Source: Eledone cirrhosa
Lineage: Eukaryota
Direction of reading: 5' to 3'
Length of the DNA stretch: 64,000 nucleotides
Assembly (NCBI GenBank): GCA_964016885.1
Contig: OZ024740.1
Coordinates: 248,372,001-248,436,000 of the forward strand
Positions 21,173-60,578 of the stretch are shown here, piece after piece. The translations under genes were made by a program, and so were the position numbers. Below the pieces are notes generated by a model, which saw only the letters and a list, made by a program, of their open reading frames with translations, did not search any database and had not been told where the DNA came from. Position 1 is the first letter of the stretch. Every line of letters begins with the position of its first letter.

Positions 21173-24134
21173 GATTTTGAGTTTATGTTGGTTGTATACC
21201 AACACCTCAGTATGCAGGCTGGAGCACTCGACGAAGTGCGCAGGTTGGTTTGGTTACTCCGGAGTAGTGTAAAATAAAGTTAAATAAAAGTCAAATGATT
21301 AAAATTTAGCTTCGTTTATTACTGCTATATATATTTCAGTGACAGCCATCTTTGGCTGTGACCTCTTCAGGCAGTTTGAATTAGTATGGTATAGACAAGT
21401 ACATATGTTGTTTAGGTGTATGATATTGTCAATACTCTGATATGCCCAGTTCCTTGTTGGGTTGTTAATTCACTGGGGAACTGGAGTCATATGAATTCAA
21501 ACAAACGAATTTTAGTGTCACAGGTCCCCTTCTCCTCTCATTGGTCAGTTATTAGTGTTGTCATTGTTGGAGTTAGCTTAAAAATTGATAAAATGGTAGA
21601 AGGGACAAGGTGTTGAAGGAACAAAATATCAAAAAATGTGTCAAACTTCCCATTGTTCAGTTCTGAGAGCATTCCTCAGTCAGAAGTCTATAGAATTCTT
21701 TCTGGGGTGAGGCTCCCTGTAGTGTTTATGCCTGCTATTGTTCAGTACATTTGACCTCCACCATTATTTTGGTACTGTTGTTGTTGTAGTGGTCAGCTTA
21801 TATCTTGCTGCTGCTAACAATTTAGAAGTATTCAGTTTGTGTTTTCTCTTCATCCCACCCGCCACCATCGTAGTGGTGGTGGCGGGGGGGGGGGGGGTTA
21901 TTTCATGTATATGAAGAAATATAAGGCAATAAATGAAGAAAACAGAAGATAAATAAATAATATAATAAAATAAAATAATTAATATAATTTGTGTAATTTG
22001 AAAATAAATAAATAAATAGAGAATAAAGAATAAAGAGTAAATGAGAGATTGGTGAAAAAGTAATGATAATGTATATGGAGAAGTGAGAAATAATGTAGGA
22101 TAAAGTGTGTGTGTGTGTGTGCTATAACCAATCTCAAGGTCAGAATATGTTGGATAGATTGGTATGATACAAGATGTTAAGATGAGATATTCAATGTGTT
22201 TGTGTTATAATCTATCTCAACTTAAAATAAATATAAATATAAGGTTATACAGTGAAGAGGGCAGAAAACAAATAACAAATTAATATAGAGAAATCAAGAT
22301 TTAAGATTGGAACTTTAAAGTCAGAAATCTGGTAAATTAAAAGTGTTTGTGTTATAGATGTTGGCCAGATTATTATGGCTGTGTCCGATTCTGTCTCTAG
22401 GCTATCATGGTGTCTGCTCCGCCTGGGTTGTTCCCTATGGCTTGAGGGGAGTTCACAACCTAGGGTGTTGTAATTGTCCATATAGCTTGAGGGAGGTCTG
22501 GCCGAGAGATGTTTTCATGTTCTGTAGAAGTCCCTATAGCTTGAGGGGAGTTCACATCTTCTTGTGTTGCTACTGTCCATATATTTTGAGAAAGGTCCCG
22601 GCTCTAAGGTGTCTGCATGGAAGCTTAAGCTGGACAGGACCCCATACTCTCTGGCCTGGTACATAATCAGGAAAGTACCACCCGATAAAGGGGGATCTTG
22701 CATATGCAAACTATGCCTGAACGAGACCCTCGAGATACTAAGAGGTGGAAGCGGCCTGATAAACCTCAGAACCGACTTCTTCGGGACATGCAGACACCTT
22801 AGAGCCGGGACCTTTCTCAAAATATATGGACACTAGCAACACAAGAAGATGTGAACTCCCCTCAAGCTATAGGGACTTCTACAGAACATGAAAACATCTC
22901 TCGGCCAGACCTCCCTCAAGCTATATGGGCAATTACAACACCCTAGGTTGTGAACTCCCCTCAAGCCATAGGGAACAACCCAGGCGGAGCAGACACCATG
23001 ATAGCCTAGAGACAGAATCGGACACAGCCATAATAATCTGGCCAACATCTATAACACAAACACTTTTAATTTACCAGATTTCTGACTTTAAAGTTCCAAT
23101 CTTAAATCTTGATTTCTCTATATTAATTTGTTATTTGTTTTCTGCCCTCTTCACTGTATAACCTTATATTTATATTTATTTTAAGTTGAGATAGATTATA
23201 ACACAAACACATTGAATATCTCATCTTAACATCTTGTATCATACCAATCTATCCAACATATTCTGACCTTGAGATTGGTTATAGCACACACACACACACA
23301 CTTTATCCTACATTATTTCTCACTTCTCCATATACATTATCATTACTTTTTCACCAATCTCTCATTTACTCTTTATTCTTTATTCTCTATTTATTTATTT
23401 ATTTTCAAATTACACAAATTATATTAATTATTTTATTTTATTATATTATTTATTTATCTTCTGTTTTCTTCATTTATTGCCTTATATTTCTTCATATACA
23501 TGAAATAACCCCCCCCCCCCGCCACCACCACTACGATGGTGGCGGGTGGGATGAAGAGAAAACACAAACTGAATACTTCTAAATTGTTAGCAGCAGCAAG
23601 ATATAAGCTGACCACTACAACAACAACAGTACCAAAATAATGGTGGAGGTCAAATGTACTGAACAATAGCAGGCATAAACACTACAGGGAGCCTCACCCC
23701 AGAAAGAATTCTATAGACTTCTGACTGAGGAATGCTCTCAGAACTGAACAATGGGAAGTTTGACACATTTTTTGATATTTTGTTCCTTCAACACCTTGTC
23801 CCTTCTACCATTTTATCAATTTTTAAGCTAACTCCAACAATGACAACACTAATAACTGACCAATGAGAGGAGAAGGGGACCTGTGACACTAAAATTCGTT
23901 TGTTTGAATTCATATGACTCCAGTTCCCCAGTGAATTAACAACCCAACAAGGAACTGGGCATATCAGAGTATTGACAATATCATACACCTAAACAACATA
24001 TGTACTTGTCTATACCATACTAATTCAAACTGCCTGAAGAGGTCACAGCCAAAGATGGCTGTCACTGAAATATATATAGCAGTAATAAACGAAGCTAAAT
24101 TTTAATCATTTGACTTTTATTTAACTTTATTTTA
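21173..24134 (+). mobile_element. Fold-back Penelope-like element: ~1350 bp near-perfect arms (21270-22619 / 22787-24134) around a 167 bp spacer
   Basis: The arms are reverse complements (mirror ORFs 21416/23788 and 22245/22925). The centre encodes a GIY-YIG C-terminal remnant YSLAWYII...CKLCLNE...INLRTDFFGTCRH. (TA)n on both sides. Confidence 0.92.
24029..24083 (+). ncRNA. Type I hammerhead ribozyme (mirror copy 21321-21375 on minus)
   Basis: actgc-CTGAAGA-ggtcacagcc/ggctgtcact-GAAA-tatatata-gcagt, followed by AATAAA. Confidence 0.85.
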
Positions 24135-24329
24135 TATATATATATATATATATATATATATATATATATATATATATATATATATATATATATATATATA
24201 TATATATATCATTTTTTCCGTATATATATATATATATATATACGGAAAAAATGAAACGAAATTTCATTTCTCACTCTTAGTACGGCTGTTACTTAAATAT
24301 AAGTATGTATACGTACATACATATATGTA

Positions 24330-59910: not shown

Positions 59911-59982
59911 CATATATATATATATATATATATATATATATATATATATATATATATATATATATATATATATATATATATA

Positions 59983-60578
59983 GTAAGGTGTATTATTGGT
60001 TGTGTAAAACGGTTCAATAAATTTATGTTAGCAATATTAAGTTCTTCACGCTTTTGTATATCTCCAATTCCATTCAAGGGAACAGCTAGATGATGTAAAA
60101 CGGAGTATAAGTATCAAAATGAAAATCCGAAGGCAAGGTATAGTTCTACAGGTTTGATACTGTGTTGATGTGTGTATATATATGTATGTATTCTTTTCTT
60201 TTACCTCGAGCCGGTGTATGTGGATGTGGAGTGTGTGTGTACCTACTCACATTAACTGAGACCGACTATATCTCTACATAATTGATTGATGTCCAGCGTC
60301 TTTTGCAGCGATAGAAATCTGACAACTTTTATGACCTCAACTGAAGATGATGGCAGTCGCCGTATTTCTGACTGCTGGATCTTCATATGAGGGAATAAAC
60401 TCTGTGAGTGAACATCGCTAATTTTCTCCCTCATATCAAGAATTTGAAGAAATTCATTTTCACCTGATGAGATCAGTGATAATCGATCATGGCTTCACGA
60501 TCGATCTATCTCTTATTGAAACATGTGTCGTGATTAAATGATTGGAATTTTACCTTGCCTTCGGATTTTCATTTTGTT
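59983..60578 (+). mobile_element. Non-coding fold-back element with hammerhead (arms 60115-60140 / 60551-60576)
   Basis: 26 bp inverted arms, a left-only extension ending GGAGTA, and TA flanks. Confidence 0.75.
60460..60533 (+). ncRNA. Type I hammerhead ribozyme
   Basis: tcac-CTGATGA-stem II-GAAA-catgtGTC-gtga. Confidence 0.75.

Follow-up and report, generated by a model that had tools for sequence, protein, structure and literature searches.

In this work, we describe a group of fold-back insertions in the genome of Eledone cirrhosa, in a stretch of 64,000 nucleotides (GenBank assembly GCA_964016885.1, contig OZ024740.1, positions 248,372,001 to 248,436,000 of the forward strand) that was analyzed as a whole and is referred to here as the window. 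The elements are dead insertions of Hydra-type Penelope-like elements (PLEs) together with short non-coding partners, and their ends lie at two fixed TA-rich sites, here termed A and B. Each fold-back has one A-type and one B-type end, and both sites are located directly 5' of a conserved bulged hairpin, whose copies after A and B are named H1 and H2, respectively. A preliminary description of the window had listed nine of these elements; it overlooked the hairpin and likewise a tenth fold-back of 134 bp at 60587-60723 (E60590).

Fold-back elements of the window and their Hydra-clade features

The window contains 10 clear fold-backs and 4 armless remnants, which are listed below with their strand, the inverted arms assessed by self-comparison of the window, the tail that extends one end, the hammerheads (found with a type I descriptor unless stated otherwise) and the hairpins. 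RT-EN denotes a reverse transcriptase (RT) followed by an endonuclease.

21173..24134 (+), E21173: fold-back with 1350-bp arms (21270-22619/22787-24134, 99.7% identity) and a 167-bp unique core with an endonuclease C-terminal piece; tail of ~97 bp at the left side, on the inverted copy; type I hammerhead 21321..21375 (-), mirror copy 24029-24083 (+); H1 21223..21265 (-) at the tail start, with a 6-bp upper stem and a long loop
38166..39176 (+), E38169: non-coding fold-back with 118-bp arms (38329-38446/39058-39176, 93% identity); tail of ~160 bp at the left; decayed hammerhead core; variant H1 38252..38327 (-), assigned by eye, with a 5-bp upper stem, a ~53-nt loop and a non-standard 3' trinucleotide
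40896..45401 (+), E40897: fold-back with ~830-bp arms (40979-41799/44557-45401, 93% identity); tail of ~84 bp; broken, 5'-truncated RT-EN open reading frame (ORF) at ~41810-43530; type I hammerhead 41027..41091 (-), mirror copy 45289-45353 (+); H1 40957..40979 (-) at the tail start
45409..45815 (no strand assigned), E45409: small fold-back with arms ~45469-45597/45685-45814 (97% identity); one-sided extension of ~59 bp
45870..48378 (+), E45871: fold-back with 124-bp identical arms (45952-46075/48255-48378, 100% identity); tail of ~83 bp; RT-EN remnant with an internal deletion; type I hammerhead 45997..46067 (-), mirror copy 48263-48333 (+); H1 45925..45952 (-) at the tail start
48405..52480 (+), E48406: fold-back with ~371-bp arms (48490-48860/52110-52480, 93% identity); tail of ~86 bp; broken, near-complete RT-EN ORF at ~48950-50985; type I hammerhead 48540..48605 (-), mirror copy 52365-52430 (+); H1 48468..48490 (-) at the tail start
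54159..54486 (+), E54160: non-coding fold-back with ~80-bp arms (54241-54320/54402-54481, 99% identity); single hammerhead 54342-54437 with a 63-nt stem II (long-stem-II scan); H1 54232-54205 (-), by pattern search
54503..57770 (-), E54503: near unit-length fold-back with arms 54609-55274/57105-57770 (90% identity), the inverted arm being 57105-57770; tail of ~72 bp on the main copy; broken ORF at ~57030-55265; H1 54549..54575 (-) at the tail start, with an A-U closing pair; H2 57073..57097 (-) upstream of the start codon, with a G-C closing pair
59982..60585 (+), E59983: non-coding fold-back with 41-bp arms (60106-60146/60545-60585, 88% identity, including a 26-nt perfect core); tail of ~120 bp; hammerhead 60460-60533 (long-stem-II scan)
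60587..60723 (+), E60590: minimal fold-back of the 54503 family, with a perfect 60-bp palindrome followed by H1 (60652-60678) and the tail
57771..57935 (+): armless stub with a decayed hammerhead, H1 (57878-57900, by pattern search) and a ~59-bp tail with a TA end
~19900..21147 (-): sixth Hydra-type RT remnant, armless, adjoining the TA run left of E21173
52564-~53900 (-): armless element with a classical hammerhead (core at 52647, by eye)
58462-59911 (+): armless element with a classical hammerhead (core at 59825, by eye)

The preliminary description had attributed inverted arms and TA runs on both sides to every element and a direct pseudo-long terminal repeat (pLTR) to none, and this holds for its nine elements: arms are present in 9/9 (88-100% identical, from 41 bp in E59983 up to 1350 bp in E21173), TA runs were seen around 9/9, and the direct repeats found were short and internal. 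However, the presence of arms in all elements is an outcome of selection, given that the window also contains the four armless remnants. Three inner junctions have distinctive sequences: the center of the E60590 palindrome is a 6-nt palindromic site, E45871 has an additional 22-nt local inverted duplication (46074-46135), and E48406 has approximately eight A7G units (48865-48925), which possibly reflect reiterative copying during joining or later slippage.

Hammerheads were searched with the type I descriptor on the window and on 20 local shuffles, and in a second scan that allowed a long stem II. The descriptor gave 8 matches, corresponding to four elements with two mirror arms each, compared to 2 matches in total over the 20 shuffles, and the second scan added matches at 54349 and 60464. 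An intact core is thus present in 6/9 of the elements that had been called hammerhead-terminated, whereas neither scan found one in 38169, 45409 or 54503. The eight distinct cores of the preliminary description are reduced to six in its listed elements; eight are reached only with the cores at 52647 and 59825, which belong to armless elements and, by eye, have a 3-bp stem I. Stem III, described as palindromic in most cores, is a perfect palindrome in three of the six and a wobble palindrome in the other three. The AATAAA-like signal was also confirmed, with AATAAA or ATTAAA located 3' of all 6, but it is not read as functional because several relatives lack AATAAA (by eye) and the RNA must run beyond it. 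Considering the five coding-derived copies, a canonical and putatively self-cleaving hammerhead is intact near the 3' end of 4 and was not found in 54503. Loose matches at 21745/23659 and 63716, each with one core mismatch, were treated as chance. Rfam reported neither a hammerhead nor any other family at the positions of the window elements and hence missed all of their hammerheads, and both of our scans were negative for the RT remnant at ~19900-21147.

A protein search yielded 198 relatives at E<=1e-5, and the 120 matches listed are mostly ~700-amino-acid (aa) ORFs plus one Hydra vulgaris protein (E=2e-57); no match below E=0.76 was obtained among solved-structure sequences, and no relatives were found among viral contigs. 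Every RT-EN ORF in the window has been disrupted by stops, frameshifts or truncation, and colinear tblastn matches to ~710-760-aa homologues place the RT before a C-terminal endonuclease in one ORF in 40897, 45871, 48406 and 54503. The match to the GIY-YIG endonuclease is weak (E=0.025 for 54503; E<=0.01 in 3/42 homologues). The Hydra clade has been defined by RWK, DKT, a CxCx5C linker, the lack of CCHH, CxxC plus CxH, hammerheads and (TA)n targets (PMC8557442), and these motifs are present wherever a window copy extends into the respective region. The RWK position reads LRWR in 54503, the sole copy extending there (RWK in the majority of homologues); DKT, as opposed to DKG, is found in 48406 and 54503, the two copies that reach it; the CxCx5C linker is found in 4/4 such copies; CxxC-E and CxH are found in 48406, 54503 and 21173; and the insertion site is (TA)n for 9/9 listed elements. 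CCHH is absent: from the last conserved cysteine region of the linker to the YIG-like motif, a single C at most and no pair of cysteines occurs. The YRDD motif that had been noted is intact in 40897 and 48406 but reads YRDN in 54503, is frame-broken in 45871 and lies outside the 64-aa endonuclease piece that is all that remains in 21173. Taken together, the diagnostic motifs agree with the earlier assignment to the Hydra clade, and we regard Hydra-type identity as very probable. In an RT tree of Hydra-like sequences only, with a midpoint root and no outgroup, the five window RTs and five database proteins form one branch (support 1.0) to the exclusion of 34 metagenome loci and of the protein from Hydra vulgaris; such a tree is no proof of clade membership. 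The window family represents a new branch within an already known clade.

Several other identities were considered. A Naiad PLE, with an N-terminal endonuclease, DKA, CCHH and no canonical hammerhead, is contradicted by the C-terminal endonuclease, DKT and hammerheads. Non-LTR retrozymes are tandem short units with type I hammerheads, whereas the non-coding members of the window are single fold-backs. The inclusion of E45409 in this family was not borne out, as hairpin, hammerhead and coding searches found no hairpin, no hammerhead and no coding trace in it; with its similar fold-back-plus-tail layout, it is possibly a partner of another PLE clade.

One-sided tails and a bulged hairpin at the two end sites

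In the preliminary description, both arms were taken to be copies of the same 3' end. Our data do not agree with this, as a tail of ~60-160 bp extends beyond the TA junction of the other copy on exactly one side in 10/10 fold-backs, for which the chance would be about 0.001 if each end picked A or B freely. The tail is attached to the short arm in 7/10 fold-backs and starts with ACTC plus C or T in 9/10. Since most ends of relatives fall at A or B, the window tail corresponds to the A-to-B interval of a head-to-tail unit. The tail end of E54503 recurs as the 7 nt preceding its H2 (8 nt for the sister copy E60590), and 4 of these repeated nucleotides are also part of the E54503 arm.

The hairpin has the form NCTC-stem-loop-UN-GAGN-NCU, i.e., a 4-bp stem, a 2-nt bulge on the 3' side, an upper stem with a loop and then ACT or GCT. 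The full motif is clear in 21173, 40897, 45871, 48406, 54160, 54503 and 60590 and also in the stub at 57771, and the hairpin occurs at 9 distinct element sites in the window. A strict pattern gave 8 matches in the window, 7 of them in elements (mean of 0.17 and maximum of 2 in 200 shuffles). A relaxed pattern without the 3' NCT was dropped as unspecific (19 matches versus a shuffle mean of 7).

A scan for relatives returned 77 loci from metagenome contigs, derived from the best 80 of 528 matches. Their unit order is ORF, 3' untranslated region (UTR), hammerhead, site A, H1, spacer, site B, H2 and start codon, with 39-61 nt from the hammerhead cut to H1, 55-83 nt from H1 to H2 and 12-55 nt from H2 to the start codon. 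For the 47 regions that extend 130 nt or more ahead of the ORF start, the strict pattern found two hairpins in 31, one in 7 and none in 9; inspection of the remaining 16 by eye revealed 8 variant pairs, 6 genomic 5' ends starting in or near the region, and 2 without a hairpin. Over 520 kb of relatives, the motif occurs 100 times, 93 times on the ORF strand, compared to 0-3 times in each of 20 shuffles. Of the 79 distinct hairpins, 77 have a bulge that begins with U; their first upper pair, on which the search set no constraint, is Watson-Crick in 75/78 (C-G 50, U-A 23). A 2-nt bulge brings 162/194 positions into pairs, while other offsets give 64/228, 64/221 and 46/183. The closing pair (n=75) is G-C in 61, A-U in 5, U-A in 4 and a mismatch in 5, and the lower stem has a pairing probability of >0.5 in 23/29 contexts for H1 and for H2 each. 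These pairs were counted by anchored scripts because a MAFFT alignment of 58 hairpins misplaced the 5' strands and was therefore not used. Rfam contained no family for the hairpin in 9 loci.

The hairpin is also recognizable in published Hydra-clade sequences. By text search, it is present in 3/6 consensus sequences of PMC8557442, namely, Hydra-2_Amil, Hydra-1_Ajap (twice) and Hydra-2_Ajap, and Hydra-1_Crog has a variant that was identified by eye. A count of three 9-letter forms of the motif across the published supplement gave 4 occurrences in the Hydra consensus file and 2 in the far larger Naiad and Chlamys files, and line breaks may hide further matches. One metagenome locus (L040:2628-2988, -) contains a 281-bp tandem non-coding unit with an Rfam Hammerhead_1, H1 and a variant H2, which ends at site A in TA; this unit is a retrozyme-like partner linked to Hydra-type elements.

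Where insertions end was determined from 85 ORF ends of relatives, of which 31 lacked a hammerhead within reach, 14 read through into the next unit, 9 were at the contig end and 31 were candidate genomic ends; 14/54 hammerhead-bearing ORF ends therefore continue in head-to-tail tandems. Removal of three candidates (one spurious match and two tandems) and merging of two contigs of one insertion left 27 genomic 3' ends. By eye, 10 of these lie before H1 (site A), 13 lie past H1 where H2 would begin (site B), and 4 lie elsewhere. When stops were mapped on sister units, 9/15 fell 0-4 nt ahead of H1 or H2; among the 6 others, family divergence seems to account for three, one is a duplicate locus, and two are at the hammerhead. 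Fold-backs were found in L001, L052, L053 and L076, with a B arm in L001, an A arm in L052, and an A arm with a B main copy in L076. The preliminary description had inferred inversion to be the default integration outcome; 10 clear fold-backs against 4 armless remnants are seen in the window, and both head-to-tail tandems and fold-backs occur in the relatives.

It could be argued that the inverted arms are assembly or chimeric-read artifacts, or that the elements are DNA transposons of the miniature inverted-repeat transposable element (MITE) type with terminal inverted repeats (TIRs). Two arm pairs are indeed 99.7% and 100% identical, and the window contains degenerate (TA)n arrays of kilobase size (28183-30747 and 34411-37284), one of them adjoining a gap of 200 Ns (30750-30949), whose lengths may be unreliable. 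However, five arm pairs are only 88-93% identical, the ends are asymmetric at a motif-defined point, the arms contain hammerheads and PLE 3' UTR, and the same architecture is present in the independent metagenome contigs L001, L052 and L076; such an origin is thus highly improbable. A TIR transposon in particular is contradicted by the end asymmetry in 10/10 fold-backs and the RT-EN remnants inside, and target site duplications are unreadable in (TA)n.

Probable priming from both target ends and a possible circular RNA template

The preliminary description had suggested that both target strands are primed from the same RNA 3' end, or else that the cDNA snaps back. Priming from both ends remains the best reading, but there are two stop sites, A and B, 60-160 nt apart, and not a single end. 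A snapped-back cDNA can recopy only its own content, and the tail would therefore be expected on the longer copy; in 7/10 fold-backs, the tail of the short arm is lacking in the long copy, which excludes snap-back as a general route and calls for a second RNA-templated start. We therefore consider it likely that the fold-backs in general resulted from two separate primings. The junction palindrome of E60590, the 22-nt local fold-back of E45871 and the self-priming proposed for Adineta PLEs (PMC3846280) would also fit a single priming followed by self-priming of the cDNA or by self-priming on an antisense template, but given the tail position, it is improbable that the inverted arms arose in this way. 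Snap-back may still have produced 54503 and 60590 or acted in local repair.

With two primings, the insertion could proceed as follows. The GIY-YIG domain would cut both (TA)n strands, and because (TA)n is self-complementary, both 3' ends of the break would be equivalent TA primers able to anneal to the UA-rich RNA of A or B. Site A would serve for the extension of one end and site B for that of the other, probably with two RT subunits positioned on one RNA via H1 and H2. The two cDNAs would stop at different points and join via short homology, e.g., the 6-nt palindrome of E60590 or the 22-nt local fold-back of E45871, yielding a head-to-head fold-back with unequal ends, and the non-coding members, which retain H1, would be copied in trans. 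On the basis of sequence conservation and placement, we favor, with moderate confidence, H1 and H2 as candidate positioning signals for the RT start, and with about the same confidence, we suggest that the RT may bind each hairpin and start there, with one start per end of the (TA)n break.

It is also conceivable that the same two priming sites are used but that the hairpins have another role, such as in transcription start, translation, RNA packaging or endonuclease recognition in DNA, and that insertions end there since these sites are the most TA-like. In this regard, the 12 nt ahead of H1 and H2 are A+T-rich (0.81 and 0.74, versus 0.62 after H1), TAT or ATA occurs within the 12 nt before H1 in 24/28 and before H2 in 20/28 cases, H2 is located 12-55 nt ahead of the start codon, and the D. 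virilis tail is required for endonuclease recognition (as cited in PMC11167929). Yet 23/27 ends fall at A or B while many other TA-rich stretches are present in the 3' UTRs, the variable spacing and compensatory upper pairs fit a single-stranded fold and not a duplex site, and the hairpins are retained in the non-coding units 54160, 57771 and L040. We therefore regard a different role as rather unlikely.

Several points weigh against an RT-positioning role of the twin hairpins. Their placement is a correlation with the ends, and copying from B on the same RNA would require strand displacement past A. H1 is missing in 45409, has only its 5' half in 59983 and is a long-loop variant in 38169, and the tail-less arm of E54503 ends ~28 nt short of site A. 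In the relatives, 4/27 ends lie elsewhere, most A and B calls were made by eye, and TA homology blurs the junctions by a few nucleotides. The closing-pair changes amount to about two events, with all U-A forms from one clade, and the counts overstate independence because many loci are sister copies. G-U versus A-C counts (7 versus 5) do not discriminate between folding of the RNA and of the cDNA strand. Finally, the strict pairing of A with B is not explained by Poseidon because the Poseidon RNA start has no homology with the DNA that is cut and neither strand was confined to one site (PMC11167929).

Both hairpins are located just 3' of the hammerhead cut and hence at the 5' end of the cleaved monomer, from which a full copy could be made only if the monomer were circularized. 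Tentatively, and with less confidence than for the steps above, we propose that Hydra-type PLEs copy a hammerhead-made circular RNA on which the twin hairpins are two origins for an RT dimer bound to H1 and H2, which would prime both (TA)n ends from A and B and could run once round. Consistent with this, 5/6 near-full copies with both ends in flank, a small sample, begin within ~20 nt of their own end-site type, either A to A (L019 and L053) or B to B (L011, L018 and E54503), while L025 overshoots by ~85 nt. By eye, the consensus sequences of Hydra-1_Ajap (A to A) and Hydra-1_Crog (B to B) fit as well (PMC8557442). However, similar ends could also arise from an uncleaved tandem RNA with hairpin stalls or joining guided by TA, and Poseidon did not need hammerhead cleavage in vitro (PMC11167929).

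The window also contains a number of features beyond the listed copies. A probable small fold-back at 58022-~58400 has 48-bp arms (79%), a decayed hammerhead and a SINE-like repeat inserted at 58229-58375, and a symmetric inverted element adjoining TA at 10190-10745 has 93-bp arms (92%) and no visible tail and may be a true MITE. At 24209-24254, two sequences of the 45409 family face each other with a single short TA run between them, namely, a tail-end stub of 12 bp in inverted orientation and a second copy (24243-), the latter interrupted by a MITE-like element (24329-25285). Tail-to-tail neighbors on one shared TA run occur in the window (57797-57845/58049-58098) and in L006, L040, L054, L057 and L071, an arrangement suggesting that insertions can target the TA run which an earlier one left behind. 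Duplications of the 3' portion of the armless RT remnant (12980-13917, 18295-19655) comprise a 445-bp tandem repeat plus a 550-bp copy beyond a LINE, and no endonuclease or hammerhead was found in these two regions. The armless elements at 52564 and 58462 have related hammerheads (77% over 57 nt) and a TA end 51-54 nt past the cut, and six-frame reading revealed no Hydra-type protein in them. Other sequences comprise a Helitron-like remnant at ~1800-7900 (+) matching Helitron_like_N and PIF1 helicase and LINE-type remnants at 11186-12690 (-), ~14500-17995 (-) and 31338-34352 (+), the last of which matches RVT_1.

Comparison with known systems

What appears to be new here is the twin hairpin and its tie to both end sites, while the fold-back layout, (TA)n targeting, hammerheads and one-sided tails have been published. 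We found no description of the twin hairpin or its link to the end sites in the literature searched, including PMC8557442, PMC3846280, PMC7229834 and bioRxiv 10.64898/2026.07.22.740005, although supplements, Repbase reports and subscription papers could hold one; the words "hairpin" and "stem-loop" are absent from the main text of PMC8557442. The origin of inverted pLTRs and one-sided tails and the role of the hammerhead are stated open questions in the field (PMC8557442; PMC11167929). A short clade-wide hairpin at both end sites with compensatory pairs makes exact mutations testable on an RNA of ~150 nt, and the model predicts start sites within a few nucleotides and distinguishes circular from tandem templates. 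As an annotation signature, the hairpin marks the ends of Hydra elements and allows non-coding fold-backs and retrozymes to be attributed to the element that drives them and not to DNA transposons. If the proposal is correct, the twin hairpin would be a first defined RT-recruiting signal common to a PLE clade and its retrozyme partners.

The window elements share with the Hydra clade of Craig et al. (2021, PMC8557442) a C-terminal endonuclease without CCHH, RWK-like and DKT motifs, CxCx5C, CxxC plus CxH, a 3' hammerhead and (TA)n targets, and Penelope-13_HM, a family of this clade, is listed there with an inverted 5'-truncated copy, as in the window. They differ in having tails of 60-160 bp and not 30-40 bp and an A-U closing pair in H1. 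More generally, inverted pLTRs are a typical PLE structure (PMC3846280, PMC8557442), and one-sided 30-40 bp tails and inverted 5' copies are common PLE features (PMC3846280; PMC8969392). Since these have been published and the Hydra table lists one such family, the fold-back architecture itself was already known. Canonical PLE insertions (Arkhipova et al., 2013, PMC3846280; PMC8969392) likewise combine an inverted 5' copy, a one-sided tail and palindromes at the inverted junction; in contrast, the nine window copies lack a direct pLTR, and the tail position favors two primings over the proposed self-priming (PMC3846280).

The closest biochemical parallel is the work by Frangieh et al. (2024, PMC11167929) on the Poseidon protein of Anolis carolinensis, with which both strands were cut and extended in vitro and two internal starts bound the tail. 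Poseidon, a predicted dimer, thus resembles the elements described here in having two RT start sites that bound the tail and an AT-rich target. However, Poseidon initiates within a single AC-rich stem-loop, 111-118 nt into the ORF, at positions unmatched to the cut DNA, whereas in the window and its relatives, the ends are found in TA-like sequence ahead of the ORF, and each of them is followed by a separate copy of a recurring hairpin. PLE hammerheads and animal non-LTR retrozymes (PMC4209133; PMC7229834; bioRxiv 10.64898/2026.07.22.740005) share the type I fold, a palindromic stem III and short non-coding partners with the elements of the window, and a circular RNA template has been proposed for them before. 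Their tandem layout is matched by L040 alone among the relatives inspected. Those sources name no cis signal for the RT, for which the bulged hairpin of the window elements and their relatives is a candidate.

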